This document shows, one piece after another, positions 2,993 through 30,610 of a stretch of 64,000 bases of DNA (within the stretch, counting starts at the first letter, position 1; each line of letters starts with the position of its first letter). Origin of the DNA: an uncultured Bacteroidales bacterium (GTDB taxonomy: Bacteria; Bacteroidota; Bacteroidia; Bacteroidales; UBA10428); contig CAYORG010000007.1 of NCBI GenBank assembly GCA_964406315.1, positions 19,245 through 83,244 of the forward strand. Direction: 5' to 3'. The notes under the pieces are model-generated. The model saw nothing but the letters and a program-made list of their open reading frames with translations, ran no database searches and had not been told where the DNA came from. A program made the position numbers and the translations under genes.

Positions 2993-2994
2993 TT

Positions 2995-4530
2995 ATGAGG
3001 AACGGAATGTATATAGTAATAGCAAGTTTCTTTCTTCTTACTTCCTGTGAAGACTGGCTGGATGTAAACCAGGATCCGAATAATCCGTCGGAGGAACAGG
3101 TGAGTTATGAATCGGTTCTTTCATCAGGCATATCATCAATAGCGTATGTTGTTGGAGGAAGATACCAGGTGCTTGGTGCTTTGTGGTCACAACATTGGAC
3201 CCAGTCCCTGGGTGCTTCACAATATGCAGGTATTGATGCATATGATATCAATAGCAGCAGTTTTGACGACAGACAATTTGGAGAATTGTATGCAGGAGCT
3301 TTAAAAGCGTTGGAATACGTGAGGATTGAATCGGAGAAAGAAGAGGAGTGGAATTATTATCTGATAACCACAGTATTGCAGGTGTATACATTTCAGATCC
3401 TCGCTGATTTGTACGATGAGGTCCCTTTCTCAGATGCTTTGCAGGGTGAAACAGGCAATGTAACTCCAGTTTATGAAAAAGGGCAGGATGTTTATGATAG
3501 TCTTATCGTAAGGCTTGACGTTGCTCTTGCCAAAGACTTTGATATTCAGGAAATGAAAGATCCGGGGGAATCCGACCTGATTTTCAGTGGCAACATAGAT
3601 CGCTGGATAGAATTTGCAAACACATTGAAATTAAAAATATTTATGCGTCAGAGTGAAGTGCGACCAGAATTAGCCAGACAGGGCATAGAAAAATTATACG
3701 ATAATGAAGTTGATTTTTTAGTAACCGATGCACGTATGGATTATTTCCATGATGCAACAGGAGAAAGAAATCCGCTTTATGAAACAGAGGAGAATGTATT
3801 GGGAGGGAATCCGAATTTGATATTGAGCCGCACATTACACAGTTTTTTGCAGGATAATAGTGATTTCGACAGACTGGATTTAATGTTTAATACTCCTGCT
3901 GACGGAGGGCCTCATAAATCCCTGATTCAGGGCAATTATAATGATCCGGATGAACCGGCCGGAACAAACCATACAAGCTATTCAAAGCCTGTTTTCCTTG
4001 CAAACGCACCTGTTTATTTCATGAGTTCTTCGGAAGCATGCTTTTTACAAGCTGAAGCAATGATCCGTTATAATGTTGGTTCTTATTCCGATGCAAGAGA
4101 CAAATACAATCAGGCTATTACAAATGCATTTATACGCCTTTTATCTGTTAACACTTTTTTTACAGAGGATGATATTATCGAACGTGCGGCATCTTTTATT
4201 AACGGTCCGTATAGATTACCCGCGGAAGGCAGCCCGCTTGAGGAATCGGTCAAATCCATTATGATCCAAAAATGGATTGCTCTTGCAGGCATTCAGAGTT
4301 TGGAAACCTTTTTTGAGCACAACCGCACTCATTATCCTGAAATATGTGATGTATTGCCTGATGATGAGGATTATGAACCCGGACAGTTTACAATATCTGT
4401 GAACAATGTAACTAGCGGCAGATTTCCAAAACGATTGATATTCCCGGAATCAGAAATATCGGGAAATCCAAATACACCTGAACCTAAAGCTGTATGGGAA
4501 AAGGTATGGTGGGATACAAAACCGGAATAA
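2995..4530 (+). CDS. SusD/RagB-family nutrient-binding outer-membrane lipoprotein
   Basis: 511 aa with a lipoprotein signal (FFLLTSC) followed by CEDWLDVNQDPNNP, typical of the SusD family. Paired with the upstream SusC homolog. Confidence 0.88.
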   Translation: MRNGMYIVIASFFLLTSCEDWLDVNQDPNNPSEEQVSYESVLSSGISSIAYVVGGRYQVLGALWSQHWTQSLGASQYAGIDAYDINSSSFDDRQFGELYAGALKALEYVRIESEKEEEWNYYLITTVLQVYTFQILADLYDEVPFSDALQGETGNVTPVYEKGQDVYDSLIVRLDVALAKDFDIQEMKDPGESDLIFSGNIDRWIEFANTLKLKIFMRQSEVRPELARQGIEKLYDNEVDFLVTDARMDYFHDATGERNPLYETEENVLGGNPNLILSRTLHSFLQDNSDFDRLDLMFNTPADGGPHKSLIQGNYNDPDEPAGTNHTSYSKPVFLANAPVYFMSSSEACFLQAEAMIRYNVGSYSDARDKYNQAITNAFIRLLSVNTFFTEDDIIERAASFINGPYRLPAEGSPLEESVKSIMIQKWIALAGIQSLETFFEHNRTHYPEICDVLPDDEDYEPGQFTISVNNVTSGRFPKRLIFPESEISGNPNTPEPKAVWEKVWWDTKPE

Positions 4531-5186: not shown

Positions 5187-5744
5187 ATGAGTATTAAAAG
5201 TGAAATTGCAATTGTCTTATTCCTGGTATCAAGCCTGATGTCCTGCATACAAAAAGAATATGATATTGAATATCAGGATGATTACCCTAATAAGTTTGCA
5301 GGGAATTGGATTGTTTTTGAATTTCCAGGCGGTGAAATTGGAACTACCCTGTATGAACCCTATGACCTGGTAACATCTCTTGATCCCAACAACAAGGGAT
5401 ATATGATTATTGACAAACTATACGATTCAGATACGAGAGTGAGAGCGGAGTATTCTGACAGTGCTTTTTATGTTTATATGGGAGAACAGCTTGAACAAAT
5501 CAGCACGAATACATATGATATAGAATATATTAGTGTGGATGGATACATTACTGCTAATCCTGTATTGATTAATATGGCTTATAATTTCGCTGCTTTATCT
5601 TTTGAAAGTATTTCATTCGAAATTTCTGATATAGAGGATATTATATATATGCATGCAGGTTTTTATGATGCCTACAAGACTGTGGTTGATACGGTTCTGA
5701 TAATAGGATACAGAAAGACCGGGTTTGAAGAGACAACTTATTAA
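5187..5744 (+). CDS. hypothetical lipoprotein (PUL-associated)
   Basis: The start is moved to the internal ATG at 5187, giving MSIKSEIAIVLFLVSSLMSC with a lipobox, 1 nt after the upstream stop. The track ORF from 5049 overlaps the preceding gene. Confidence 0.55.
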   Translation: MSIKSEIAIVLFLVSSLMSCIQKEYDIEYQDDYPNKFAGNWIVFEFPGGEIGTTLYEPYDLVTSLDPNNKGYMIIDKLYDSDTRVRAEYSDSAFYVYMGEQLEQISTNTYDIEYISVDGYITANPVLINMAYNFAALSFESISFEISDIEDIIYMHAGFYDAYKTVVDTVLIIGYRKTGFEETTY

Positions 5745-5761
5745 AGTTTAGCAAACGTAAT

Positions 5762-8700
5762 ATGAAAAATATCGAAAAGAAATATTATGGGCATATCATA
5801 ATTGCTTTATTCGTTTTGGTTTTCAGCATTATACTTATTCCCGGAAAGGATCTGAAAACAAATTCGAATCCCGGGTCGATGATCCCCGGTTATGATAAAC
5901 CTGAAGGATATTATGAATTTTTCCGGAGGATAACCACACCGATTGGCGCTGATGAAAGCGATTATAAAACGAACTACCGGTATGAGGAATTGCAAAAGGC
6001 TTTGGAAGCTCATCCCTTTGAAAAATCAGGGAAAAGTATTTTCAACTGGACACATAGAGGACCGGGAAATGTTGGGGGAAGAACCAGGAAAGTTATCATT
6101 GACCCTGAAGACCCGACGAATATGACCTGGTTTGCGGCTTCAGCCAGTGGTGGCGTGTGGAAGACGACAGATGGAGGAGAATCCTGGCAGCATCTTACGG
6201 ATGAATTGTCGAATCTTGCAACCAATGCAATTGCTATGGCATCCTCAAATCATGACGTATTGTATATCGGAACAGGAGAAGGATATGGTGGATTTGGCAT
6301 GGTCAATGGAAGTGGGATGTACAGAAGTAATGACAAGGGAACAAGCTGGATCCCAATTGATACCACTATAGAGGATGAGAATTTTAAGTGGGTCAATCAA
6401 ATCATTGTGAATGAAAATGATGAGGATATAGTACTGGCTGCTACCAACTCCGGTATTTTCAGATCCATGAACGGCGGACTGACCTGGGATACAACTTACT
6501 TTACAGGACATGCAGTTCAGGATATAGCTGTAAATCCTTTGGATTGTAATACATTGTATGCAGGTGTGAACAAATGGGGCATTATTAAATCATACAACCA
6601 GGGGATCAAATGGTTCGATGCCATTGAAGGTATAGCCACAGGATCAAGATTTTCCGTAACCGTAAGTCCTGTCGATACAAATTTCATTTATACGAGCGTG
6701 GAAGCTCCTGATCTGGAAACGCATGTATATGCCTCTGACGATGGAGCCCAGAGCTGGAAAAAGCTTAACGATTACAACCAGACTTTCATTCATTTCCTCG
6801 GTGTTCAGGGATGGTTTAATAATATTATCAAAGCCCATCCCTTTTCTAAGAACAAAGTTTTTATCGGAGGAGTGGATCTGGGTTGTATTGAATTCAAAAA
6901 TACGACCAATGTAAGTGAACCACAGGTTTTAAGAACAGATACATTTGGAACGGCATCATTTATGGGTTTTGTTAATTTTGGCGGGATTTCGCTTGGAGGA
7001 GGTATGTCCACAGGTCTTGATGAAGAAGCTGATATTGAAGAAGAAGATTTCACCAGCATCGAAATACGATTTGGTCCGGGAAAATCTCAAAAAGCACATC
7101 GATTTATCGTGCCGGAAGGTGAAGGGCCGGGAGTGCCACCTGAAGATTATACATACATGGATTACATAGAAGTTGATTTTGAAGCATGGGATACGGATAA
7201 CAACAGGCAGCTCATGGTATCCTTCAGAGATCAGGAGAGAGACGGAGAATTTAACCTGATAAAAAGGGAATACGGTGATGATATTAGTGGCAGAGAATAC
7301 CTGTTTGTTCATGCAATGGAATACAAGAATGATCCTGATCCTGAAATTTCAATGGATGGAGGACATTATCATAAAATGATGTATTTTTTCTGGCCGACTC
7401 TTGGTGAGGATCTCGAAACTATGCCGGAGGTTATTCCTGAATCAAGAATACGTGTGAAATACGGATCTTTGTTATTGCAGGATGCAAATACTACGATCCT
7501 TGCGGATGCCAGCAGGAATACCCAATTGCATGTAGATCATCATGATTTACACTTTATTATTACAGATGAAGAGAATGAAAAATTTTCAATTCTCGATGCA
7601 AATGACGGGGGATTTGGTTTTTCAACCGATCAGGGAAATACCTGGAAACAGATCAATAAGGGGTATTTGACTACCCAGTTCTATGGCGTTGCGAAAAAAC
7701 CCGGAAGTCATGAATATATTGGAGGAATGCAGGATAATGGCACATGGCAGTCGCCCATAGGTGAGATTGCAACAGCCGGTTCTGAATACGAAAGCAGGGT
7801 AGAAGGTGATGGTTTTGAATGTCTGTGGCATCCTGTATATCCGCATCGCATCCTGGCTTCTTCCTATTACAATTTGTTTAAAGTGTCAAATGACGGAGGG
7901 GAAACCTGGAGTTCTGCTACCAATGGAATTATAGGGGATGGGCCTTTTCTCTCCAGACTCTCACATTCGCCAAATAATCCGGACCTGGTATTCGCCGTTG
8001 GTAACTGGGGTGTATACAGACATACTAACTTTTGTATTGGAAGATACGATTGGGAATTGATCGAAATTGATGATGGATGGTCTATTGAAGATCAGGTTAC
8101 AAGTTCTCATAGTGTGGAAGTATCATTGGCAGATGAAAAAATAGTATGGGCAGGGGCAGGAATGTATGAAAATCCTGATCTGTCTGTGTTTTTATCAAAG
8201 AATTACGGTAAGACATTTGAACCGGTGAATCTATATGATGAATGGGAAATGGGCTATCTTACTTCTATTGCAACCCATCCGACAGATCCTGCAACAGCCT
8301 ACCTTTTGTTTTCAATGAATAAGAGACCAAAAATTCTCAGGACTGAAGATTTTGGTGAAACATGGGAAGATATTACTTGGTTTGAAAAAACTGACAGTAC
8401 AAGTCATAATGGTTTTCAGGATATCATGGTATATTCATTGTTGGTTTTTCCGTACAATACTGATATAATTTGGGCAGGAACGGAAATTGGCATTTTTGAA
8501 AGTACTGATAACGGAGTATCCTGGCATTTGGCAAACAGCGGTTTGCCAAATGTTTCGGTATGGCAAATGTTTATTCAGGACAATACTTTGGTGGTGGCTA
8601 CGCACGGAAGGGGAATCTGGACAGCTCCTCAATATCCGGGAGCAATTGAAGAAAATGAAATGCAGGAAATACTATGCATTCAGACATATCCAAATCCTTC

Positions 8701-10000: not shown

Positions 10001-10204
10001 TTAAAAATTAAGAATTAAGAATTAAAAATTAAGAATTAAAAATTAAGAATGAATAATTGGGTTGGCTGGAGTTTAGAAGCCTGCAATGTAGAAATGAGAA
10101 GGCAAAAGGTAAAAGGCAAAAGGCAGAAAAAACAAACAATTACCAAGACCAGCGACTAATAACTAACAACTTGAGACTAACATCTAACTCTAAACTTAAA
10201 ATTA
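10001..10204 (+). repeat. word-repeat spacer between cysD and cysN: (TTAARAA)x8 then degenerate 7-mers including (AAGGYAR)x4
   Basis: Read directly. 10001-10056 is ttaaaaa/ttaagaa x7 plus tgaataa, starting at the base after the cysD TAA. 10099-10126 is aaggcaa aaggtaa aaggcaa aaggcag. 10150-10200 is a run of ..acta/..acttgagacta.. 7-mers ending at the cysN ATG. Confidence 0.85.
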
Positions 10205-15223: not shown

Positions 15224-15303
15224 TTGGTATTTAGTTAATTACGTTTCTAAAATCTATCAAACAATTTAACTCATCATTTTCATTTCGGAATGCGGATTTT
15301 GGA

Positions 15304-15490
15304 TTAGCTTCGCTGAGCTCTCCCGATAAAATCGAGATCGGTTGCGGATTATGTGCTTCGAAAGTTCTCAACTCACCAACTCATCAACTAATCAACTCCT
15401 CCGACTTCTGACTCCCGACTTCCGACTTCAAGCTCAAAACTCTAAACTTCTCACCCTTTTACCTTCTTACCTTCCGACTTCCGATTTTCC
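15304..15490. repeat. ftsK-lolA spacer repeats: partial element A (15304-15345) plus a G-poor 7-8-mer word array with CCGACTT x5
   Basis: 15304-15320 is ttagcttcgctgagctc, followed by tcccgataaaatcgaga and gatcggttg (compare 18143-18175). 15366-15490 is tcaNcaac and ccgactt words, with ccgactt at 15401, 15415, 15422 and 15474 and ccgattt at 15481. I count 7 G in about 125 nt. The array ends 2 nt from the ftsK stop codon. Confidence 0.85.
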
Positions 15491-15492
15491 CA

Positions 15493-17886
15493 TTATTCAA
15501 GCGAATTCAAATATTGTTCCAAAGAATATTCATCAGGAAAAAGAACCTGTCTTGCTTTACTTCCCTCAAATTGTCCGACAATTCCGGCAGCTTCAAGCTG
15601 ATCGATAATGCGTCCTGCACGGTTGTAGCCTATCGAGAACTTTCTTTGTATCAAAGAGGTTGAGCCTTGCTGATGGGCTACGACTAATCTTGCAGCATCA
15701 CTGAACAAGCTGTCTCGTTTTGAAAGATCCACATCCAGTAATCCATCACCTGCATTTTCATCAACATATTCAGGCAAAAAGAATGGAGTGGGGTAGGAAG
15801 GTTGTTTTCCTATATAACTAGTAATTTGCTCCAGCTCCGGAATATCAATAAATCCGCATTGTAATCTGATCAGATCGCTTCCCGGAGCAAACAGCAAATC
15901 ACCTCTGCCTACAAGTTGATTTGCTCCGGGAGTATCAAGTATTGTACGTGAATCGATCATAGAAGTAACCCGAAATGCAATTCGGGCAGGGAAATTTGCT
16001 TTTATCACACCGGTAATGATATTTGTTGTGGGCCGTTGGGTAGCAATTACAAGATGAATTCCAATTGCTCTTGCCACTTGAGCAAGGCGCGCTAGCGGTG
16101 TCTCAACTTCACGACCTGCTGTCATAATTAAGTCAGCAAATTCGTCAATAACAACTACAATATAGGGCATATACCTGTGTCCGTTTTCCGGGTTGAGCCT
16201 TCTTTTGATAAACTTCCGGTTATATTCTTTGATATTCCGAACCTGTGCTTTCTTCAGCAAATTGTACCGGTCATCCATTTCGATTGTTAATGAATTAAGA
16301 GTATTTATAACTCTTTGTGTATCAGTAATAATAGTTTCTTCCGAATCGGGAATTTTTGCCAGATAATGTTTTTCAATTTGTGAATAGAGAGTAAGTTCCA
16401 CTTTTTTCGGATCTACAAGGACAAATTTCAATTGAGCAGGATGCTTTTTGTAAAGCAGTGAAGTTATGATTACATTCAGGCCAACAGATTTTCCCTGTCC
16501 GGTTGCTCCTGCAACAAGCAAGTGAGGCATTTTTGCCAGATCAAAAACATACGTTTCGTTCGAGATAGTTTTGCCAAGAGCTATAGCCAGATCATAATCC
16601 GAATCCTGGAATTTTCTGGAAGAGATCAGTGAGCGCATAGAGACAATTTCGGGTGTCTGATTTGGAACTTCAATGCCAATTGTTCCTTTACCTGGTATGG
16701 GCGCTATTATTCGTATTCCCAAGGCAGAAAGGTTCAGAGCTATATCATCTTCAAGATTCTTAATTTTTGAAATTCTTACACCGGGAGCCGGCACTATTTC
16801 GTATAGCGTAACAGTAGGACCGATGGTAGCTTTGATTTTATCAATCTGGATCTTATAATGCCCGAGCGTTTCAACAATTTTGTTTTTGTTGCTGATCAAC
16901 TCCTCATTTGTTACAGTTGAGTTGCCGGTTTCATGTTTTTCCAAGAGGTCCAGTGTCGGCAGTTGGAAATTCGATAATTCCAGGGTGGGATCATAATCAT
17001 CCAGGGGTAGATTTGAATTGAATTCTCCCTCTTCTTCAATTTCTTTTGATTCAACTGTAAGCTGCACATCGTCTTTTTCGTTACTATCAGATGACTCACT
17101 TACAAAACCTGATTTTGCAGTGAATTCTTCAGTTTCTGAGCTTCGTTCATTTTGAGGGAATTCGGTTTCAAAGATCAGGTCACTATCTTCTTCATTGCTT
17201 TGATCAACTTTGTTTTTAAAATGTATTCCGGAATCATATAAATCCCTGTCTGTTTTCGTTTTGAAGAAAAACAAATGCCTGCCAAGGATCTTTTTAACAT
17301 GAACAAGTGATTTTTCAAATGCAAACAATATAACACCAATACTTGCTATAAGAAGAAGCAAAAATACGCCGATCCTGCCTAAAAGACTTGTCAGAAATAG
17401 ACTCATATAATGTCCGTGTCTTCCTCCGGGTCCCGATCCTAAAATAACACTTGATTCAAAAAAATAACCAAGCCATACGGAAAGAACAATAACACAAAAA
17501 AGGGTAGCTAAAAGTGTTTTTCCAAAATGAAGCAATTTAATATTAATAAATCTCAGACCATAAAGAATTAATAGAAAAGGAAAAGCAAAAGAGGCAACGC
17601 CAAACCACCTGTTTATTGTAAGATTGGCCAGGAAAGCTCCCGTTTTGCCTGCCCAGTTTTCAACAATCATCTCAGCACTGGCCCATTCAATATTCCCTTG
17701 AATACTCTGGTCGGTTTTCCAGGTAAACAAATAGGAAAGTTGGGAGATAAAGAGCAAAAACCCAAAAGCAATAAAAAGGAAAGCCATTAAGATCCTAAAG
17801 CGTTCATCCCGTATGAATCCTAAAATGCCTCTTTTCTTTTTTGATTTTCTTGCAGCAGATTTATTTTTCCCTTCTTTTCCTGCCAT
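15493..17886 (-). CDS. ftsK: DNA translocase FtsK/SpoIIIE
   Basis: 797 aa with N-terminal TM helices, an acidic linker, a motor domain with Walker A GATGQGKS and DEFADL, and a C-terminal gamma winged helix (STSLIQRKFSIGYNRAGRIIDQLE). Confidence 0.95.
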   Translation of the reverse strand: MAGKEGKNKSAARKSKKKRGILGFIRDERFRILMAFLFIAFGFLLFISQLSYLFTWKTDQSIQGNIEWASAEMIVENWAGKTGAFLANLTINRWFGVASFAFPFLLILYGLRFINIKLLHFGKTLLATLFCVIVLSVWLGYFFESSVILGSGPGGRHGHYMSLFLTSLLGRIGVFLLLLIASIGVILFAFEKSLVHVKKILGRHLFFFKTKTDRDLYDSGIHFKNKVDQSNEEDSDLIFETEFPQNERSSETEEFTAKSGFVSESSDSNEKDDVQLTVESKEIEEEGEFNSNLPLDDYDPTLELSNFQLPTLDLLEKHETGNSTVTNEELISNKNKIVETLGHYKIQIDKIKATIGPTVTLYEIVPAPGVRISKIKNLEDDIALNLSALGIRIIAPIPGKGTIGIEVPNQTPEIVSMRSLISSRKFQDSDYDLAIALGKTISNETYVFDLAKMPHLLVAGATGQGKSVGLNVIITSLLYKKHPAQLKFVLVDPKKVELTLYSQIEKHYLAKIPDSEETIITDTQRVINTLNSLTIEMDDRYNLLKKAQVRNIKEYNRKFIKRRLNPENGHRYMPYIVVVIDEFADLIMTAGREVETPLARLAQVARAIGIHLVIATQRPTTNIITGVIKANFPARIAFRVTSMIDSRTILDTPGANQLVGRGDLLFAPGSDLIRLQCGFIDIPELEQITSYIGKQPSYPTPFFLPEYVDENAGDGLLDVDLSKRDSLFSDAARLVVAHQQGSTSLIQRKFSIGYNRAGRIIDQLEAAGIVGQFEGSKARQVLFPDEYSLEQYLNSLE

Positions 17887-17909
17887 GGTCTCTTTTAAAT
17901 TTTGATAGT

Positions 17910-17917
17910 CAAAGTTA
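17910..17917 (-). promoter_or_regulatory. candidate -7 promoter element (TAACTTTG on minus strand) upstream of ftsK
   Basis: The reverse complement of caaagtta matches TAnnTTTG, 24-31 nt upstream of the ftsK ATG. I saw no clear -33 TTTG. Confidence 0.25.
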
Positions 17918-18097
17918 ATAAGCGTACTTTCTTAACATAAAATTATTTGAATTATTATTTAACAATTGAAGTTAATCGGATGTGAGATTCTGAGATGGTG
18001 AGACTTTAGACTTGAGACCAGAGATTTGCAACTATTCTTTGGTTGCTTGTTGCCGCGAGTGGTGTTTAACTGTTGAATCGTGTAACTGTGTAATTGA

Positions 18098-18175
18098 CTT
18101 CCCTGCCAGCCGGTTTACCTGCCGAAGGTATGGCAGGCTGGGTCGAGCTCTCCCGATTTTTATCGGGATCGGTTG
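18098..18175 (+). repeat. dispersed element A, copy 1
   Basis: cttccctgccagccggtttacc (18098-18119) is identical over 22 nt to 22235-22256. atggcaggctggg (18130-18142) is identical to 22266-22278. Internal hairpins are CCAGCC/GGCTGG and tcccga-ttttta-tcggga (18151-18168). Confidence 0.85.
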
Positions 18176-18485
18176 TGTAACTGTTTAATCGTTAAACTGA
18201 TGAGTTGATCGAATGGAACTTGAAACTTGAGACTATTTTGGTTGCTGGCTTTGCCCACTGAAGTTTTAACGTAGGCGGAATGCTGGGTCAAACGATTAAT
18301 CGGGGAATCGGTGAATCGATGAAATGAAGACTAATGATTTAACTTATTCAATATGGTTCAGTTAATCGATTGCCCGGTTAATCAGTTAATCAATTACACG
18401 ATTATACAATTCAACGATTACACTAATTTTAAATCTTGAGATGCAAAGCTGGAAACCAGTGACCAGAAACCAAAGAATTAGAGAC

Positions 18486-18502
18486 TTCGGATTCATTCCG
18501 AA
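18486..18502 (-). terminator. candidate terminator hairpin downstream of lipoprotein gene 18524..19210
   Basis: ttcgga-ttcat-tccgaa (6-bp stem) about 22 nt after the stop codon. On the minus strand it is followed by gtctctaattctttgg, only a weak T tract. Confidence 0.3.
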
Positions 18503-18523
18503 ATCAACAATCCGCAATGTGAA

Positions 18524-19210
18524 TCACTGATTCTGTGTCATTAACCTGTTAAGGATAGCCACCATTTCAGGCCTGTTTACAATTGTTGCCTGTTCCGGAA
18601 TTTTCATTTTTTCCCTGGGAAGATATTCAGGATCGAATTTTGTGGCTGTAAATTGCATGAGGTATGGTCCCATAACCAATCGAAATTCTGTTAAAACGCC
18701 ATCAATGCCATGATACGGATTTGCTATGTTGGGCTTGTTCAGATTGATATCATTTGTATAGTATATATCAAATGATTCATCACTGTCTTTAAAACTTACG
18801 GTTACCTTCTTCGACTTTAATCCTGCTATAATAACAGTTGCTGTATCTTCTTCAAGTTTCATTCCATCCATACAATCAAAGCAGCACATCATCTCGTTTC
18901 TTCCTCCAAAAAATGCATAATTTTTATCAAGAACTTTAAGGTGTGTATTTACTTTGTGATTTTTAAAAGAGGTCATATTGCCGAGTTTGAAAAAACCCAT
19001 GAAGCCATCTATATTGTTGATGCTAAACTCCTGGTTGAATTCAAGGACCATTTTTTTTGGCAGGAAGGATGGATCATAGTTATCTTCTTCTGCATTGAGG
19101 TATTTGATCCTATATTCCAATCTTCCCTGGTCGTATATTCCCTGATTTCCTTTTTCGCCGCACGAAACCAACAGAATAATCATTGAAAAAAGCAAAAATG
19201 CACGAATCAT
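18524..19210 (-). CDS. hypothetical lipoprotein
   Basis: 228 aa with a signal peptide and lipobox (ILLVSCGEK). No domain recognised. Confidence 0.6.
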   Translation of the reverse strand: MIRAFLLFSMIILLVSCGEKGNQGIYDQGRLEYRIKYLNAEEDNYDPSFLPKKMVLEFNQEFSINNIDGFMGFFKLGNMTSFKNHKVNTHLKVLDKNYAFFGGRNEMMCCFDCMDGMKLEEDTATVIIAGLKSKKVTVSFKDSDESFDIYYTNDINLNKPNIANPYHGIDGVLTEFRLVMGPYLMQFTATKFDPEYLPREKMKIPEQATIVNRPEMVAILNRLMTQNQ

Positions 19211-22479: not shown

Positions 22480-22938
<459 letters not shown>

Positions 22939-22958
22939 TTATGTATTAAATGTTAAAA

Positions 22959-24962
22959 TTACTTTTTACTAAAAGGATTATATTTTTTACCACTGCCAAT
23001 GTATCCGGCGTTTTTATAAAATTCTACAAAGGTTAAACGCAATGGGTGAACAAATGAACCCAAACCTGACATGAATATATTGATTCCATGTCCTATCAGC
23101 AATATAAGTACAAAAACCAATTGACCAATAACCGGTATATCAGGACTCATATTCATAGCCAGCTCATTGAACACAAAACCAAGAATTGCACTCGAAATAC
23201 CCAGTGCAAACAAACGAATGTAGGATAACAAATCGCCCAGAATTCCTGTAACCATATTGTATGTATCCCATAATCCGGCACCAAAATTTATAAGGATGTT
23301 TCTTTTTGGATTGTTGAAGAAATAAATACCGAGACTGCTTATCCCCAATACCAGGAAGAATAGTATTTTGGCTGCGTTATCTGTTAAATGAGCAGTGGAG
23401 TTCAACAGGTAAACGGTTCCGCCACCCAGAATTAACAGAAGCCAGCCGAGCGTTGCGAAAGCATACCGGTAACCATACATTCTCGCCTGATTAGCAGCTT
23501 TGATAAACATTCCGAAAATGATCTGAACACCACCAAGAATAAGTGCCAGCTTGAACATTTTATCAGGATCAAGAAGCAAATGCCTGAAAGAACTTAAAAA
23601 CGGAAAATCAGCCTTGGTGTTTTTAATGATCAGATTCTGATAATTTACATAGGCTTCATTTCCCAACAGATCTTTAAGTTTACTCTGAAAGGCTAATTTT
23701 GATTCAATATGTACATCGAGCAAACCATTCAGTTTCTCAATGATTTCAGCCGGTAAATTGTGTTGCTGAAAGATAGCAATAGACTGGTCTGTAATAAGAT
23801 ATCCCGTATCTATAAGGTTCATGCCAAAAATTGTACCCGTGATGGTGCCAAAAAAAACCGTTGCAAGCCCGAGAAACTGAATTAAAGTTAATATGGGTTT
23901 GAGTTTCTTATCTACTTTAAATTTAAAATAAGTAGCTCCGAGAATAAACAGCAAACCATAACCGGCATCGCCCAGACAAAAACCAAAGAACAACATAAAG
24001 AAAGGGGCAAAAAAAGGTGTAAGGTCAATTTCTCTGTAATCAGGCAATGAATACAATTCTCCGATGGCTTCAAATAATTTCGGGAATTTTTTGTTTTTAA
24101 GCAAAACAGGGATGTTGTCTTTTGGCGTTGGCTTTTCTGCCTGGTAATACACATCAGATTCATTAAGGAACTTATTGATTTCAGCTTTTTTTTCAATCGG
24201 AACCCATCCTTCGAGCAACATCAATTTTTCATCTGCCTGTTTTTCAGTGTTGAGGACTACTTTTTTAAAATCGAGTTCACCGATTAATTTGGTCCTTGTC
24301 TGTTCTAACAGATCCAGGTATCGTGCAGTAAAATCATCATACAGTTCTTCCGTTTTCTCAAGAATGCCAATGATTTCATTCATCGATTTGTTGAGCTGCT
24401 CCAGGGAAATTTCAGGAAGCTTTATTTTTTCAGCATGAATATCAATTGTTTCATCTGTCGTATGCAATACAACAAAGTATTTTTGGCTACTTACTTCACT
24501 GATATGAATAAGATTGAAATCTGCTTCCCATTTCGGATCAAAGTTTCTGTTGGGACAAATATAAAATTCAAGGATATAACCTGCCTGCTGCAACTTTTCT
24601 ATCGTGTTCCAGCTAAAATCACCCCATGGTTCAAGAACAATTTTTTCTTTTTGAAGTTGGGTCAGTTTTTGCTGATATGATTCCTGATCGGATTGCAGCT
24701 TCTTTAATTCATTCAGAATTGAGATGCCATCTGTTTTTTTCTCATCGATTGGTTTTGCCTCCGGGTTACGTTTTGAAAGAAATTTAATGGCCTGATTGAA
24801 TTCATTTACTTGTTGATATTTCGCACGAAATTCATCGTCTTCAATCTCTCCCGACTGTCTTTCAATAACATGAAGAACTCCCAGATCCCTTATACCATCA
24901 AGAAACTCCATATAGTCTTTATGGTAAATCAGGAAAGAGTATTTTTTCATCGGCGCTATCAT
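22959..24962 (-). CDS. atpI: V-type ATPase subunit I (a-subunit homolog)
   Basis: 667 aa with a soluble N-terminal half and a multi-TM C-terminal half carrying the essential-Arg motif LLSYIRLFALG. Its start overlaps the subunit D stop (ATGA). Confidence 0.88.
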   Translation of the reverse strand: MIAPMKKYSFLIYHKDYMEFLDGIRDLGVLHVIERQSGEIEDDEFRAKYQQVNEFNQAIKFLSKRNPEAKPIDEKKTDGISILNELKKLQSDQESYQQKLTQLQKEKIVLEPWGDFSWNTIEKLQQAGYILEFYICPNRNFDPKWEADFNLIHISEVSSQKYFVVLHTTDETIDIHAEKIKLPEISLEQLNKSMNEIIGILEKTEELYDDFTARYLDLLEQTRTKLIGELDFKKVVLNTEKQADEKLMLLEGWVPIEKKAEINKFLNESDVYYQAEKPTPKDNIPVLLKNKKFPKLFEAIGELYSLPDYREIDLTPFFAPFFMLFFGFCLGDAGYGLLFILGATYFKFKVDKKLKPILTLIQFLGLATVFFGTITGTIFGMNLIDTGYLITDQSIAIFQQHNLPAEIIEKLNGLLDVHIESKLAFQSKLKDLLGNEAYVNYQNLIIKNTKADFPFLSSFRHLLLDPDKMFKLALILGGVQIIFGMFIKAANQARMYGYRYAFATLGWLLLILGGGTVYLLNSTAHLTDNAAKILFFLVLGISSLGIYFFNNPKRNILINFGAGLWDTYNMVTGILGDLLSYIRLFALGISSAILGFVFNELAMNMSPDIPVIGQLVFVLILLIGHGINIFMSGLGSFVHPLRLTFVEFYKNAGYIGSGKKYNPFSKK

Positions 24963-25558
24963 TGCATTACCTCCTCTTGCTGTCTGGTTTTTACAATTTT
25001 TTGAGCCGATTTGGATAAATTGTCCTCATCTTCCATAAATCGTTTGATTTTCAATATTGCCTCTTCATAACCTGGAATCTGAACTTTTTCAAAAAGGTTT
25101 ACTTTTTGTGTGGTCTTTTTTCTGGCATAATTCAGCAATTCCATCTTACGGGAGAATACTTCACGTTCTATAGCCAGGCTAATTGTTTCTTTCAGAAGCT
25201 CAATTCCACCGAGAAACCATTTGGGAGCATTAAACACACTGAATTCAGCTACAAAGAAATCAATTTCACTCAGAACAGGAGTTTTAACACCGGCAATTTT
25301 TTTTATGTCCAGTTTTACATCTTCAATACCTACAAGGTTTTCGTCAAACTCTCCCCAAAGCTCAACCATTTTTTCATAAGATTTGATCTTATGATTCAGC
25401 TCATTATCAAGTCTGTTTGCTTCATCTTTTGCCTTTTTCACCTCAATCCTCAATGCCGACTCTTTATTTTTAATGGTAGGCAATGCGCGTACTCTGATCT
25501 TAAGCTGCTTCTCGAGAGCCTGAAGTGAAGTCTTATTGTATTGAAATTTTATGGCCAT
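24959..25558 (-). CDS. atpD: V-type ATPase subunit D
   Basis: Coiled-coil protein at the D position of the operon. The start is moved to the ATG at 25558 (MAIKFQYNKTSLQALEKQLK), because the track start at 25594 would overlap the four-helix-bundle gene. Confidence 0.75.
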   Translation of the reverse strand: MAIKFQYNKTSLQALEKQLKIRVRALPTIKNKESALRIEVKKAKDEANRLDNELNHKIKSYEKMVELWGEFDENLVGIEDVKLDIKKIAGVKTPVLSEIDFFVAEFSVFNAPKWFLGGIELLKETISLAIEREVFSRKMELLNYARKKTTQKVNLFEKVQIPGYEEAILKIKRFMEDEDNLSKSAQKIVKTRQQEEVMQ

Positions 25559-25577
25559 CTTAATTAATTGCTGGTTG

Positions 25578-25955
25578 CTAGTTTTTAGTCTCAAGTTCTT
25601 TAGAAATTATCAATTTCCTGATGAACGAATTGATCATTTTTTCTATCTCCTGGATTAGCTTGATAAGCTCATCAAATTCAATATCCGGAGCAAGATTATT
25701 CAACTGAACTATGGATAGTTGTGTTTCCAACTCAAAACAGGATCCTAAGGCAATTTCAAGAAATCTGGCAAAATCTTTGTTACTTTTTCGACTGGTTCCT
25801 TCTGCAATATTCGAAGGAATTGAGATAGCAGATCGTATCAATTGAGGTCTCAAAGTATATTTTTCCTTATCATCACGTAATTTTGCCAAATGATATGTTT
25901 TCTGGACAACATCCATTCCTTTTTGCCATATCTTTAAATCCTTGTAATTGTTCAT
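25578..25955 (-). CDS. four-helix-bundle protein (23S rRNA intervening-sequence protein / Avd-like family)
   Basis: 125 aa with family hallmarks DLKIWQKGMDVV..., RSAISIPSNIAEG.SRKS..DFARFLEIALGSCFELETQL. The C-terminal tail ..KELETKN is encoded by the CTTGAGACT word. Confidence 0.85.
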   Translation of the reverse strand: MNNYKDLKIWQKGMDVVQKTYHLAKLRDDKEKYTLRPQLIRSAISIPSNIAEGTSRKSNKDFARFLEIALGSCFELETQLSIVQLNNLAPDIEFDELIKLIQEIEKMINSFIRKLIISKELETKN

Positions 25956-26008
25956 TTACCAAATCCTTTCTATTTGCTTTTTCTTGTGACTTGCGACTAG
26001 AGACTTTT

Positions 26009-27331
26009 TCAATTTTTCTTCCAGTATTTATCTGTTAATTCCTGTTTGATACCTAATTCTTCCAGTTTAAAATATTTCTGAAATAAATTCCAGCCTGTAT
26101 CCAGCATTTCATCTATGTCAATGTTAACATCTATTGCAAGCAGTTTTCTTGAATAGTCTTTTGCATAATCCAAACTGCGCTGATCATAATCTGTTAGGTC
26201 AAAACCATTTTCAAGTTTGGTTTTTGCATTAGCAGCATCAGCAAAAAGACGCACTGCTGTATTCATAACTTGCGGGTGGTCTTCCCTGGTTTTCTTACCA
26301 ATTACAAGCTGTTTGAGTCGTGATAAACTGCGGAATGGGTCAACAATTACTTTACCGATGTCAGAGTCACGTCTTAAAAACAACTGTCCTTCAGTAATAT
26401 AGCCTGTATTATCAGGTATTGCGTGAGTAATGTCACCTCCGGAAAGAGTTGTTACGGCAATAATGGTTATCGATCCGCCTGATGGAAACTGAACTGCCTT
26501 TTCATATATTTTAGCCAGATCACTATACAATGAACCGGGCATACTGTCTTTCGATGGTATCTGGTCCATACGGTTGGATACAATACTTAAAGCATCTGCA
26601 TAAAGCGTCATATCAGTGAACAGAACAAGCACTGTTTCATTTTTATCCACAGCAAAATATTCAGCAGCTGTTAAAGCCATATCAGGCACCAGTAATCTTT
26701 CAGCAGGAGGATCCTCCGTTGTATTTACAAAACTTATGATTCTGTCAAGAGTTCCGGCATTGTCAAACACATTTTTATAAAAGAGATAATCATCATTTGT
26801 TAATCCCATACCTCCGAGAATGATCTTATCGGTTTTGGCTCGTAAAGCCACCATTGCCATCACCTGGTTAAAAGGCTGATCAGGATCTGCAAAAAAAGGA
26901 ATTTTTTGTCCGGATACCAAAGTATTGTTTAAGTCGATACCGGCTATACCTGTTGCTATCAATTCTGAAGGTTGTTTTCTCCTAACCGGGTTTACGGAAG
27001 GGCCGCCAATCTCTCGTTCCTCACCTTCAATTGCGGGACCTCCATCAATAGGATCGCCATAGGCATTGAAGAATCTACCTGCAAGATCTTCACTCACTTT
27101 CAATGAAGGGGCTTTCCCCAGAAAGCTTACTTCTGCATTTGTTGGAATGCCTTCAGTACCTCCAAAAACCTGTAGGGTAACCATATCTCCAATTATTTTC
27201 ACTACCTGTGCAAGTTTACCGTGAATCACAGCAAGCTCGTCGTAACCAATACCTGTAGCTTTAAGTGAGCAGGTGGCTTTTGTAATCTGGGTAATTTTAG
27301 TATATATTTTCTGAAAGGCTTTAGAATCCAT
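26009..27331 (-). CDS. atpB: V-type ATPase subunit B
   Basis: 440 aa with a nucleotide-binding-fold B subunit pattern (VSGQKIPFFADPDQPFNQ, LFTDMTLYADAL, PGSLYSDLAKIYE). Confidence 0.92.
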   Translation of the reverse strand: MDSKAFQKIYTKITQITKATCSLKATGIGYDELAVIHGKLAQVVKIIGDMVTLQVFGGTEGIPTNAEVSFLGKAPSLKVSEDLAGRFFNAYGDPIDGGPAIEGEEREIGGPSVNPVRRKQPSELIATGIAGIDLNNTLVSGQKIPFFADPDQPFNQVMAMVALRAKTDKIILGGMGLTNDDYLFYKNVFDNAGTLDRIISFVNTTEDPPAERLLVPDMALTAAEYFAVDKNETVLVLFTDMTLYADALSIVSNRMDQIPSKDSMPGSLYSDLAKIYEKAVQFPSGGSITIIAVTTLSGGDITHAIPDNTGYITEGQLFLRRDSDIGKVIVDPFRSLSRLKQLVIGKKTREDHPQVMNTAVRLFADAANAKTKLENGFDLTDYDQRSLDYAKDYSRKLLAIDVNIDIDEMLDTGWNLFQKYFKLEELGIKQELTDKYWKKN

Positions 27332-27363
27332 TTTTAATTTATTTAGTTCAAAATTATCCGCTA

Positions 27364-29121
27364 TTATGCAATTTGTCTCTCTTTTAAAACTTCTTTCAGT
27401 TCCTGTTCGAATTTGTTGAATTTTTCAGATTTAAATTCTGAATAATTCATTTGCTTGTATAAGTTTATTATCCGTTTGAAGTAATTGTCAACTTCGGTAA
27501 ATGATTCGAAATTGAAGTCTGACCTGCAAATGCCAATGAGCTGTTCAAGCATGTATTGCTGTCGTTCAATAGGAGTAGACTGATCTATTATATCAAATGC
27601 ATCTTGTTGCAAAATAACAAAATCAATAATTTCAGATTTCCAGTATGTTATATGGTAATCAACCGGCACACCGTCATCACCAAGAATATTGATCTGTTCG
27701 TATGTTTCCTTTCCTCTTAACAGAATGGTCTTTGCTTCATTCACCAGGTCAATCCATTGATCAGAAATTTTCTTGCCGACAAAATCAGCAAACTCTGGAT
27801 ATTCAAGATACTTTGAATAGCTATCGATCGGGTCAACTGCAGGATAACGTTTGCTGTCAGCACGTTGCTGTGACAAAGCATAAAAACATCTGGCTGCTTT
27901 TTTCGTCGATTCTGTAACGGGTTCCTTCAGATTACCGCCGGCAGGAGACACTGTACCTATAAATGTAATTGAACCGGATTCTCCGTTGTTCAGGTGAACA
28001 AATCCTGCCCTGGAGTAAAAATTGGAGATAACAGCAGGCAAGTCCATCGGAAATGCATCCGGACCGGGCAATTCTTCAAGTCGGTTCGACATTTCTCTTA
28101 ATGCTTGTGCCCAGCGCGATGTAGAATCTGCAAGCATTAATATCTTTAATCCCATGGCTCTGTAATATTCACCGAGTGTCATGGCTGTATATACAGAAGC
28201 TTCACGGGCAGCCACAGGCATATTGGATGTGTTGGCAATGATGGTGGTTCTTTCCATTAATTTGCGACCGGTTCTTACATCCTCAAGTTCAGGAAATTCG
28301 GTAAACAATTCCACAACCTCATTTGCACGTTCGCCACAGGCAGCAACTATCACGATATCTGCTTCGGCCTGTTTCGAGATAGCATGCTGCAATACTGTTT
28401 TACCTGCTCCAAAGGGTCCGGGAATAAATCCTGTTCCACCTTCAACAATCGGATTCAGTGTATCCATTGTACGAACACCTGTTTCAAGAAGCTTATATGG
28501 ACGCGGCTTTTCTTTGAATGCAGTAATAGCGACTTTAACCGGCCATTTCTGGACCATGGTCACTTTCACTTCTTCATCATTTTTATCAAGAAGAACAGCA
28601 ATAGTATCGTTAATTTTATATTCACCAGCTTTAGCAACTGATTTTACAGTATAGCTTCCTTTAAAACTGAATGGCACCATGATCTTATGAGGCATAGCAT
28701 TTTCATCTACTTGTCCCAGCCAGGAGGCTGGTTCAACAATATCACCAGCTTTGGCAAGCGGTTTAAATTGCCATTTTTTGTCGGAATCCAAAGGATTTGT
28801 ATATTCACCTTTGTTAAGAAATACCCCTTCCATTTTGTCGAGATCATTTTGGAGACCATCGTAATTCTTAGACAAAATGCCAGGACCAAGTGTTACTTCC
28901 AGCAAATGTCCTGCAAACTCAACTTCACTGTCAATTTTCAAACTGCGCGTGCTTTCAAATACCTGGACATAGGCATTATTGCCATTTATCTTAATGACTT
29001 CTGCCATCAACCGGATTTTTCCTTTGATGATGAAACAAATTTCATTTTGTGATACCGGCCCATCAGCTTCAATAATCACCAGGTTAGCTATAATGCCTTT
29101 CACTTTACCTTTTGTTGACAT
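27364..29121 (-). CDS. atpA: V-type ATPase catalytic subunit A
   Basis: 585 aa with Walker A GPFGAGKT, plus LMLADSTSRWAQALRE and FPMDLP. Confidence 0.95.
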   Translation of the reverse strand: MSTKGKVKGIIANLVIIEADGPVSQNEICFIIKGKIRLMAEVIKINGNNAYVQVFESTRSLKIDSEVEFAGHLLEVTLGPGILSKNYDGLQNDLDKMEGVFLNKGEYTNPLDSDKKWQFKPLAKAGDIVEPASWLGQVDENAMPHKIMVPFSFKGSYTVKSVAKAGEYKINDTIAVLLDKNDEEVKVTMVQKWPVKVAITAFKEKPRPYKLLETGVRTMDTLNPIVEGGTGFIPGPFGAGKTVLQHAISKQAEADIVIVAACGERANEVVELFTEFPELEDVRTGRKLMERTTIIANTSNMPVAAREASVYTAMTLGEYYRAMGLKILMLADSTSRWAQALREMSNRLEELPGPDAFPMDLPAVISNFYSRAGFVHLNNGESGSITFIGTVSPAGGNLKEPVTESTKKAARCFYALSQQRADSKRYPAVDPIDSYSKYLEYPEFADFVGKKISDQWIDLVNEAKTILLRGKETYEQINILGDDGVPVDYHITYWKSEIIDFVILQQDAFDIIDQSTPIERQQYMLEQLIGICRSDFNFESFTEVDNYFKRIINLYKQMNYSEFKSEKFNKFEQELKEVLKERQIA

Positions 29122-29135
29122 ATTGTGTTACTTAA

Positions 29136-29999
29136 TTATTTTAACTGAAATTCCTCAGGAAACTCATAAGATGCTTCCATATTGTTAACCAATTCATTAA
29201 ACAGTTTCTGACCAGTTTCCTTATCCAGAGAAAGCCAGCGCTCAATAATGGTGAGCTTGATCAGAAATGAAAATATTCTTTCAATGGTGAAATAATGGAA
29301 AAATACTTCATCATCAAGATAGTCCCATTTCACACGGTCAATCATTTTTTCCTGTTGTAAAAAATCGTCTTCATCAAGTGCCTTAAATATCCGATCGTGA
29401 TACGGAAACTCGTTATCAAGACCGAAATCCCTGGAACTGCTTCGGGTTAATTTCTCGACAAGATCACCTGTTCCAATCAATTGTCCCTCAACAGGTATAT
29501 TGTGTTTTTTACATTTGGCAGCGGTAAGCAAATTATTCAGATCGCGTTCAAATTGAAACCATTTGCTGATGAATAGGTTTGGATGAGAAATAGCATATTT
29601 GAAGTATAGCTCCGAGAACTGAAGCGCCCATCTTTTCCCTGATATTATAGGAGTTTCATTTCTATAGGCCTCGATAATTTTTCCAATATATCCTGGGACT
29701 CCCAATACTTTTTCATCAAAGGAATCTTCTTTAACAGCAGATAGTATAGTGTCAATTTCTTCCGTGTTCAGATTGCCTGATCTTTCGATAGCTTTTTTAC
29801 TGTTTTCAAGCTTTATCAGTACATTTCTGTTGTCATACCGCCAGAAAAATAACTTGAGTATGTTCATATCATCTGCTGGCAGATGATTGGAAAGCATGTC
29901 AAGTAATTCTGATGAATTCATCAACAATTTATTGTCCTCAAAAAGTAATTCTGGCAATCCGGCAACAAGGTAATGGTATTGTCTTCTCATAACTATCAT
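29136..29999 (-). CDS. V-ATPase-associated DUF2764-like protein (subunit C position)
   Basis: 287 aa between subunits E and A, with an ATGA overlap with E. Assigned mainly from operon position. Confidence 0.55.
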   Translation of the reverse strand: MIVMRRQYHYLVAGLPELLFEDNKLLMNSSELLDMLSNHLPADDMNILKLFFWRYDNRNVLIKLENSKKAIERSGNLNTEEIDTILSAVKEDSFDEKVLGVPGYIGKIIEAYRNETPIISGKRWALQFSELYFKYAISHPNLFISKWFQFERDLNNLLTAAKCKKHNIPVEGQLIGTGDLVEKLTRSSSRDFGLDNEFPYHDRIFKALDEDDFLQQEKMIDRVKWDYLDDEVFFHYFTIERIFSFLIKLTIIERWLSLDKETGQKLFNELVNNMEASYEFPEEFQLK

Positions 30000-30610
30000 G
30001 CTCCAAACAGGATTTCTACTAATTTAGGGCGAAGGTAATGTTTGAAAAAGTTTATAAAGTCTTCATCTGTAAATGATACTTTATAGCTTCCGTCCTTTGG
30101 GCCGACTTGAAATCCGGCATGAATTGTGGAATCAAAATCAACTGATACTCCTTTGTCGAGATACTTTTTTGCTTCCTTTTTGAAAAACTCGGCCATGTTT
30201 TTTTCATCCTTTGCCGGCAAAAGCAACGATAATTCCATACTTTGGCCTGAACTTGCCCAATTGGACAATAAGGTCCGGATGATTTCCTTTAAAAAATCTT
30301 TATCATTGAATGCTTCCTTTATTGAAGCACTTGTTATTTTATCATTAACAACATCTACAATTTGCTGTTTAAGAGCATTTATTGATTGTTTGCATGAAAG
30401 TTTAATTTCTGAATTCGTATTGGTCTTTGTTTCAGCAGCTTTTTTGGTTGCCTCATTTAAAATGGATTCTGCCTCTTTTTTAGCTTTTTCAATAATTTCT
30501 TTGGCTTCAGAATTTGCTGATTCTATTATTTGCTTTGCTTCAGCATTTCCTTTTTCAACTCCTTCCTGAAATATTTTTTCGGTAAGTTCCTGAAGTTTAC
30601 TCTGCATCAT
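29996..30610 (-). CDS. atpE: V-type ATPase subunit E
   Basis: 204 aa with a long Lys/Glu/Ala-rich N-terminal helix (EAKQIIESANSEAKEIIEKAKKEAE). First gene of the operon. Confidence 0.75.
   Translation of the reverse strand: MMQSKLQELTEKIFQEGVEKGNAEAKQIIESANSEAKEIIEKAKKEAESILNEATKKAAETKTNTNSEIKLSCKQSINALKQQIVDVVNDKITSASIKEAFNDKDFLKEIIRTLLSNWASSGQSMELSLLLPAKDEKNMAEFFKKEAKKYLDKGVSVDFDSTIHAGFQVGPKDGSYKVSFTDEDFINFFKHYLRPKLVEILFGA

Follow-up and report, generated by a model that had tools for sequence, protein, structure and literature searches.

A 64-kb stretch of DNA from an uncultured Bacteroidales bacterium (64,000 nucleotides, referred to simply as the window) carries, between the genes for subunits B and D of a V-type ATPase, a small gene of the PF05635 family, the family of the 23S rRNA intervening sequence (IVS) protein. 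When this insert was compared with relatives (~180 related loci in total), it appeared to belong to a class of cassettes, each of them a promoter-less PF05635 gene that lies between co-directional operon genes and is bracketed by inverted, mutually complementary arrays of short words, mostly of 7 nt. By analogy, such cassettes may be the messenger-RNA counterpart of those 23S rRNA IVS that bear an open reading frame (ORF). We give about an even chance to the reading that the insert in the window is an IVS-like cassette, resident in the operon and co-transcribed with it, whose stem has eroded. The bracket of the window copy is too weak to stand alone. Across the relatives, the sequence comparison shows a repeated colonisation of operon junctions by such genes, and it supports inverted complementary flanks as the rule for the family.

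The V-type ATPase operon, atpE-C-A-B-D-I-K, lies on the minus strand, its subunits being assigned by Pfam and NCBIfam matches. Its genes are spaced by -4 (E-C), 14 (C-A), 32 (A-B), 450 (B-D), -4 (D-I) and 32 nt (I-K), and the sole ORF in the B-D gap encodes a protein of 125 aa. These measurements agree with the original prediction for this DNA, which had been made from the letters alone; it had described spacings of -4 to +32 nt everywhere except between B and D, and a discrete insert with one 125-aa ORF in a gap of ~450 nt. It had also assigned the product to the four-helix-bundle (FHB) proteins of the 23S-IVS type, and this identity was confirmed by full-length matches. The protein matched PF05635 with an E value of 1.8e-35 (121.8 bits, cut-off 33.8; the profile covered in full, positions 1-106) and TIGR02436 with an E value of 7.5e-35 (119.4 bits, cut-off 24). 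Among bundle proteins with a structure in the PDB, it resembled 2gsc (E 3.9e-19) and 2rld (E 2.1e-5) in sequence. By homology, it would be a member of the FHB proteins related to Avd of diversity-generating retroelements (DGRs). The whole window has this one PF05635/TIGR02436 gene, and no decayed FHB gene or cassette remnant was found when the other spacers of the window were searched. The same arrangement, with identical proteins, was present on 24 metagenome contigs.

The original prediction had proposed that relatives be examined for empty sites, where the atpB stop sits next to the atpD start, and such sites were indeed found. When AtpB was used for a scan of one genome per species, 80 related operons were obtained (AtpB 82-93% identical), and in 57 of these the B-D gap was 100 nt or less. 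An insert longer than 200 nt was present at B-D in 17 of the 80, and at the other five junctions in 0, 3, 2, 0, and 1. Nine PF05635 genes at B-D were confirmed by Pfam (L011, L015 from Prolixibacter bellariivorans, L021, L022, L029, L035, L038, L051, and L084). When all ORFs in ~740 kb of operon loci were subjected to a profile search, PF05635 genes appeared solely at B-D and always on the operon strand. The FHB proteins of this junction were 17-32% identical to the window protein and fell into at least seven groups, while AtpB was 85-93% identical; independent filling of the junction by non-orthologous PF05635 genes is thus supported. In the AtpB tree, the operon of L011, whose FHB protein is 26% identical to that of the window, nests within the clade with the window-type gene, which points to replacement of the whole cassette at the same site.

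Every FHB-bearing B-D junction was flanked by inverted arrays of short words, the words differing by lineage (e.g., AGAGTTC... / ...GAACTGA; GATTGTA... / ...TACAATC; and GTGCTTCGCAC and GGGCTTCGCCGTT against AACGTGCGAAGCAC and AACGGCGAAGCCC). Ten of these junctions, the window's among them, were tested against shuffled sequences, and eight exceeded them, with z down to -18.8; the flank duplex energy of L035 reached -192 kcal/mol, and L152 and L178 are further cassettes with a strong stem. A search for PF05635 homologues at E <= 1e-10 returned 4697 proteins. By scanning metagenomes with aligned window-type proteins, 80 further FHB loci were obtained, most of which had the same bracket anatomy.

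We assayed the specificity of the flanks by pairing each upstream flank of 88 cassettes with all 88 downstream flanks. After centring, a cassette's own flank ranked first as partner in 30 cases, where chance would give ~1. Flank complementarity with z below -2 was seen for 57% of the cassettes and for 3% of the mismatched pairs. When the same test was applied to a control gene of similar size, atpK, in 67 operons, the median z was +0.36 and 6% fell below -2. A tandem array was present on at least one flank in 60 of the 88 cassettes, compared with 3 of 124 control segments. The arrays usually had 3-6 units, with a period of 7 nt in 61 of 79 and of 8 nt in 14 of 79.

The words are not a conserved signal. 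Nearly each cassette has its own, and word sequences differ even between cassettes whose proteins are 45-60% identical, although related proteins can bear related words despite different contexts (the group of L099, L118, L102, and L152). Of the earlier expectation that members of the family would be flanked by inverted GAGACT-type words, the inverted complementary flanks were therefore found to be usual, while the words varied between cassettes almost throughout. Four residues of the FHB proteins are near-invariant (Q38, R41, E52, and E75). Two paralogous cassettes on one contig, L122.0 and L122.1, had the same words and an identity of 79% that took in the array edges as well as the ORF, so that the unit can be copied whole.

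The contexts of the cassettes were very diverse, 140 neighbour proteins falling into 113 clusters. Of 60 cassettes, 46 were co-directional with both neighbours, and the FHB ORF started at a median of 50 nt past the upstream stop codon. Recurring junctions were fadB-like/thiolase, thiolase/acyl-CoA dehydrogenase, F1 beta/epsilon, and distant A/V-type B-D. Annotated plasmid members came mostly from Nostocales and other cyanobacteria, and from Riemerella; among 12 annotated plasmid examples, 9 had inverted heptamer arrays, 1 had long direct arrays, and 2 were unclear. The plasmid junctions were cas6-[FHB]-cas4 (two genera), cmr2-[FHB]-cmr3, parA-[FHB]-parB, and a TraM-like gene followed by the FHB gene. 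No 23S motif was found in the 80 metagenome FHB loci. In the window, no rRNA or any Rfam family was detected at gathering score, and permissive Rfam-type scans of 25450-26100 and 17800-18600 gave nothing credible.

True orthologues of the window protein, at 90, 85, and 68% identity, were all located at the same B-D junction in related uncultured Bacteroidales. Outside B-D, its nearest homologues were at most 58% identical, and included loci in unrelated contexts. When dN/dS was calculated against the orthologues, values of 0.09-0.13 were obtained for the FHB gene, 0.04-0.08 for atpD, and 0.02 for atpB, the synonymous sites being saturated in the deepest comparison. On these substitution patterns, the cassette of the window lineage is judged to be old, vertically inherited, and under purifying selection. 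Such inheritance under purifying selection implies that the protein is produced and has an effect on which selection acts.

The original prediction had taken an inverted GAGACT repeat as the border of the insert at both ends. Both words, AGTCTCAAG (25587-25595) and CTAGAGACT (25997-26005), are present and complementary at 8 of 9 (9 of 10) positions. However, the word on the 3' side of the cassette lies within the last six codons of the FHB ORF, and not outside it; the 3' array overlaps the ORF end in many relatives too. GAGACT is not enriched in the window (13 observed, 15.3 expected). The recurrence of CTTGAGAC in repeat-filled spacers, also claimed earlier, was verified at 10170, 18011, and 18226. 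This word is mildly enriched in the window (4 observed against 1.14 expected; 2 of 100 shuffles reach 4).

A nested RNA stem is nevertheless possible in the window copy, and its two arms (Table 1) pair in both the minimum free energy (MFE) and the centroid structures. In the MFE fold, the closing stem consists of 5 + 9 bp around a 4x4 internal loop, and the FHB stop TAG (25578-25580) forms part of the proposed 3' arm. The three degenerate AGTCNCN units upstream make a weak array, unreported by the Tandem Repeats Finder at a score of 30. Orthologues bear related words in the same place of the 5' flank. When the window was compared with L091, two of the few flank differences were found to hit the proposed stem; this observation is anecdotal. 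One is a compensatory change from CUAGU/ACUAG to CUGGU/ACCAG, by which the stop codon is lost as well, and the other retains a G.U pair. Flank complementarity in the orthologous cassettes L093 and L094 (z -1.8 and -1.2) showed a weak tendency, short of the threshold of -2. The stem of the window copy is best read as the eroded stem of an old resident.

Table 1. Features of the insert, its borders, and its host operon in the window (loci other than the window are given by their handles).
Feature	Position	Strand	Basis
Host operon atpE-C-A-B-[FHB]-D-I-K	22480..30610	-	Pfam
atpB, V-type ATPase subunit B	26009..27331	-	NF002555 E 3.4e-209; also PF00006, PF22919
atpB stop TGA, upstream border of the insert	26009-26011	-	
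5' flank of the cassette, 53 nt: three degenerate 7-nt words, then A-rich leader to the FHB ATG	25956..26008	-	
Degenerate heptamers (AGTCTCT)(AGTCGCA)(AGTCACA)AG in the 5' flank	25983-26005	-	read from sequence
Proposed 5' stem arm, RNA sense: 5'-CUAGU (25996-26000), CGCA, AGUCACAAG (25983-25991)	25983..26000	-	MFE and centroid folds
FHB gene, 125 aa, PF05635/TIGR02436 (23S rRNA IVS protein, Avd superfamily)	25578..25955	-	
Proposed 3' stem arm: CUUGAGACU (25587-25595), AAAA, ACUAG-3' (25578-25582)	25578..25595	-	sequence and fold
A-rich spacer, 19 nt, FHB stop to atpD ATG	25559..25577	-	
atpD, V-type ATPase subunit D; ATG at 25558, downstream border of the insert	24959..25558	-	NF002565 E 3.8e-64, aligned from residue 1
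ORF6N gene at atpB-atpD	L027 3091-3714; L040 5382-5933; remnant L086 5308-5584		

Signals for separate transcription were sought around the insert. No terminator-like site was found in 24900-26400, the sense strand of 25500-26400 had no TAnnTTTG box of the Bacteroidetes kind, and sigma-70-like promoter matches were at chance level. As no promoter or terminator consensus stood out, co-transcription with the operon is the simplest inference; most likely, the cassette is carried on a transcript of the atpE-K operon. Within that message, its two arms would pair, closing the ~400-nt insert into a stem-loop that would bring the 3' end of atpB and the 5' end of atpD together. By analogy with the rRNA IVS, the stem could offer a double-stranded site for processing of the RNase III type or for stabilisation. 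The insert might then do little harm to the host operon, with the bundle protein being translated from the loop.

Several results weigh against the reading of the insert as an IVS-like cassette of the mRNA. The inverted repeat of AGTCTCAAG and CTAGAGACT is at chance level, being 1 of 21 comparable pairs in 651 nt, and as good a flank duplex was obtained in 48 of 300 dinucleotide shuffles of the window flanks. The flank duplex of the window has an energy of -15.6 kcal/mol, compared with -12.7 +/- 2.9 for shuffled flanks (z -0.98), the whole-insert fold gave z -0.56, and in the partner test of the 88 cassettes the window copy, with z +0.57, was among the weakest. Across the family, duplexes of sense and antisense flanks were equally stable (Wilcoxon p 0.3-0.9). 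Mismatches of the G.U type (85) were not in excess over those of the A.C type (104), in a comparison of low power made between different word variants. Without an RNA-specific signature, the flank complementarity could be a feature of the DNA, or a relic of one. In some cassettes the inverted arrays are absent or direct (L097, L135, and L181), and the window has heptamer arrays without any FHB gene, so that arrays and genes are not strictly coupled. Finally, given its long vertical inheritance and purifying selection, the window copy does not at present act like an element that is mobile or selfish; the label 'selfish' given to it earlier is a poor fit to inheritance past synonymous saturation with a dN/dS of ~0.1. 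What stands of the IVS analogy first proposed is its comparative anatomy, i.e., the empty sites and the inverted flanks, whereas the GAGACT repeat was insignificant and the tests for RNA signatures were negative.

A bracket that acts at the level of DNA would account for part of these results. The arrays would then be terminal repeats or single-strand hairpins that serve insertion or copying between operon junctions or remain from it, with no role in the transcript and with neutral decay thereafter. The lack of sense/antisense asymmetry and of a G.U mismatch excess is in line with this, and so are the duplication of arrays and ORF as one unit and the replacement of the whole cassette, words included, in L011. 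Repeated colonisation of the same junctions suggests targeting, and decay would account for the weak stem of the window copy, which is old. However, no transposase, integrase, or reverse transcriptase accompanies the cassette and no target-site duplication was seen; the divergence of the words among cassettes with 45-60% identical proteins leaves no conserved recognition sequence. Moreover, the orthologues retain complementarity despite drifting words, implying continuing selection for pairing. We consider an exclusively DNA-level bracket rather doubtful. That the flanks are coincidental, and the gene an ordinary lineage-specific accessory gene fixed in the operon, agrees with the chance-level repeat of the window, with vertical inheritance at the site under purifying selection, and with a GC content (33%) near that of the operon (37.5%). 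An ordinary gene is hard to reconcile with a bracket that is found across the family and is specific when set against the control gene, and with a junction that has been filled repeatedly and independently; the weak, non-significant flank complementarity of L093 and L094 (see above), together with their related words, also speaks against it. This explanation seems to us improbable.

The arrays may alternatively be binding sites, on RNA or DNA, for a multimeric bundle protein, making the cassette a module of protein plus iterons with a regulatory effect on itself or on the host operon. In a variant of this idea, the module might spread ORF-less arrays, as RAYT transposases relate to repetitive extragenic palindromic (REP) sequences. 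The number of units per array would suit a multimer, 2gsc, the closest solved relative, being a homopentamer according to the literature. ORF-less inverted arrays fill the same junction in L012, L042/44/49, L070, and L072, and CTTGAGAC is found in three ORF-less array spacers of the window above expectation. The related words of related proteins across contexts are equally explained by common descent. The words are extremely diverse for a conserved small protein, whose near-invariant residues do not vary with them, and the other spacers of the window are dominated by words unrelated to FHB flanks; we hold this to be the least probable of the alternatives. The IVS-like cassette is favoured over these by an anatomy that matches the IVS in protein family, in size, and in the position of the ORF in the loop of a terminal stem, a stem that in Coxiella is cut by RNase III. 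As to the origin of its arrays, we favour that they are brought in by the cassette, in view of the same-site replacement together with the words and of the ORF-plus-array homology of the paralogues. They may instead have existed beforehand as hairpins that were entered by the gene, a view kept alive by the many gene-less arrays in the window and in the literature.

The proposal that the arrays of 7 or 8 nt place stop codons in all frames was rejected, as no more than 13 of the 34 upstream arrays, and 14 of the 41 that lie downstream, closed all three frames, and 17 of the 41 downstream arrays close no reading frame. Purines made up 0.60 of the 5' flank and 0.47 of the 3' flank, the former being the richer in 67 cassettes against 18, a difference that is uncontrolled on ordinary genes and is not counted as evidence. 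An exception to the usual pattern was seen in L181 (1080-1680), where 14 AAGCTAA units upstream and ~10 AAGCCAA units downstream of the FHB gene have the same orientation.

The B-D junction has other occupants as well. Two inserts, in Paludibacter-like genomes, were ORF6N genes matching the PADLOC candidate PDC-S05 (E 1e-77). Only these matched PADLOC, none of the FHB proteins did so, and the flanks of the two ORF6N inserts were not complementary, being no better than shuffles. In two Bacteroidales (L026, 5333-6472; L031, 5215-5808), B-D held ORFs of 379 and 197 aa that are related to each other, begin like lipoproteins, and found no match in Pfam. Several inserts were ORF-less stretches, and ORF-less inverted word hairpins were observed in L012, in three Bacteroides genomes (L042, L044, and L049), in L070, and in L072. 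In L080, a metagenome-assembled genome of Lewinellaceae, the junction was filled by 239 nt (5317-5556) without a credible gene, in which an (GGGGAGAT)n array is followed by an (CCACAACACCTAAAAA)n array, the two not being mutually complementary. Inserts were also noted between atpA and atpB. That of L027 (952-1530) encodes a zeta-toxin-like P-loop protein, and that of L035 (2090-3020) contains an unannotated ORF of 217 aa amid REP-like palindromes, GTCAGCCGCTTCGCGTCAGAC; a guess that this ORF is a RAYT transposase received no confirmation from Pfam.

FHB genes lie in CRISPR-Cas operons of Anabaena sp. 90 pANA02 (L180), a Pseudanabaena galeata plasmid (L181), and a Picosynechococcus plasmid (L188); the junction is that of cas6 with cas4 in two genera and that of cas10/cmr2 with cmr3 in the third. 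In L134, an FHB cassette (1205-1567) is situated inside an ORF (40-2613), the coding region of an Eco57I/PglX-type N6-methyltransferase; the host frame is open through the cassette in another frame, and the methylase domain is split (residues 341-374 and 542-826). L122 has its two paralogous cassettes (2992-3351 and 5548-5919) in one Eco57I/PglX-type methyltransferase gene, apparently fragmented.

Gene-less word arrays occur elsewhere in the window. The ORF-less spacer of 636 nt at 17887-18523, between an unannotated gene of 228 aa and ftsK, is packed with arrays of the GAGAT/GAGAC, TAACTG, and AATCG types. It contains the longest inverted repeat of the window (18064-18097 with 18390-18423; 34 nt, 79% complementary, enclosing 292 nt), and neither an Rfam match nor a remnant of an FHB gene was found in it; the TAACTG words are similar to the published TAACTGA repeats (PMC4679880). 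The spacer at 10001-10204, between a cysD-like (PAPS_reduct) and a cysN-like (GTP_EFTU) gene, has three different tandem 7-nt arrays, namely AATTAAG x8.6, AAGGCAA x3.9, and an xxCTAAx series that includes CTTGAGACT, with no evident inverted partner. At 15224-15492, between ftsK and a LolA-like gene, the tandem arrays are TCAACTCA x3.9, TCCGACT x4.3, and CTTCTTAC x3.5.

A broader proposal is that bundle genes and inverted heptamer arrays together form one autonomous class of mobile cassettes, homing into operon junctions and rRNA helices in Bacteroidota, Cyanobacteriota, and other phyla. The Avd-related protein would recognise its own arrays or help to copy them, and loss of the ORF would give the hairpin repeats known as short tandemly repeated repetitive (STRR) and TAACTGA sequences. 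We consider this proposal unlikely as it stands. 

To our knowledge, PF05635, a very large family, has solved structures and no known function outside DGRs. For decades, explanations have also been missing for the rRNA IVS that bear an ORF and for the heptamer repeats seen in cyanobacteria and Bacteroidota. Should it be general for bundle genes to move as cassettes that are bracketed by a stem and settle at junctions of operons, PF05635, the IVS, and the heptamers would become one testable system. The junctions concerned include V-ATPase B-D, F1 beta-epsilon, fadB-fadA, cas6-cas4, cmr2-cmr3, and parA-parB, and cultured carriers exist in Prolixibacter (P. bellariivorans ATCC BAA-1284, L015), Riemerella (R. 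anatipestifer, L187), Nostoc (N. punctiforme PCC 73102, L185), and Anabaena (Anabaena sp. 90, L180). Such a general habit of the cassettes would, if true, be relevant to annotation and to the way in which operon messages get segmented.

The class may be compared with several known systems. Correia elements (Correia repeat enclosed elements, CREE) and other miniature inverted-repeat elements are co-transcribed intergenic inserts whose inverted ends fold in the host mRNA, are cut by RNase III, and alter its processing or stability. They carry no gene, have conserved terminal repeats, and are present in many near-identical copies per genome. The cassette, in contrast, carries a gene, its ends differ at each locus, there is one copy in 64 kb, and no duplication is seen at the borders of the L122 paralogues. 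Free-standing homing endonuclease genes are small and are found repeatedly at the same junctions of conserved phage genes, with non-orthologous occupants in sister lineages. FHB genes likewise occupy the same junctions repeatedly, with non-orthologous occupants in sister lineages, but the bundle protein is without a recognisable nuclease domain.

The STRR heptamers of cyanobacteria are intergenic tandem 7-nt units, often within operons and sometimes forming hairpins, e.g., between hupS and hupL, and their function is given as unknown (PMC2670836). TAACTGA repeats, from Beggiatoaceae, Cyanobacteria, and a few Bacteroidetes, are also given as of unknown function (PMC4679880). Both kinds of array were described without an associated gene (PMC2670836, PMC4679880), and 'four helix' and 'S23' are unmentioned in the paper on the TAACTGA repeats (PMC4679880). 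The window carries such arrays, with TAACTG-type words at 18064-18200, whereas the arrays of the cassettes are inverted pairs around a PF05635 gene. No published link of PF05635 genes to heptamer arrays or operon junctions was found in the full-text literature, with subscription journals outside its scope. With DGR Avd, the window gene shares a homologous FHB protein (PMC10053308). Some relatives gave weak matches to PF22296 (bAvd), and the window protein gave none at E <= 0.001. Within ~10 kb of the FHB gene, no reverse transcriptase was called (no search aimed at template and variable repeats was made), the genes called being those of the V-ATPase, a glycosyltransferase, DUF456, CAP, RRM, ornithine carbamoyltransferase (OTCase), and FtsK.

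The closest resemblance is to the IVS of 23S rRNA, which lie in helices 9 and 25 in bacteria other than Coxiella. The Coxiella IVS, inserted in helix 45, is 428-444 nt long and has a terminal stem of 28 bp; the S23p ORF lies in its loop, and RNase III cuts the stem at its middle (PMC4990558). The window cassette differs in being placed between atpB and atpD in an operon mRNA and not in an rRNA helix, and in having arms that are tandem arrays of short words, weak ones in the window, in place of a unique 28-bp repeat. Its ORF is under purifying selection in the window lineage, whereas that of Coxiella is decaying, and RNase III excision, demonstrated for the IVS, would apply to the cassette by analogy. 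In common with the IVS of Coxiella burnetii and Leptospira, it has a PF05635 ORF, a size of ~430-450 nt, and a layout in which complementary ends would pair into a stem with the ORF in its loop; it is probably also transcribed within its host RNA, and it occurs sporadically, relatives having empty sites (PMC4990558). In this light, the window copy looks like an eroded example, long resident at its site, of a variant of the IVS-type element that extends across phyla and seems undescribed.

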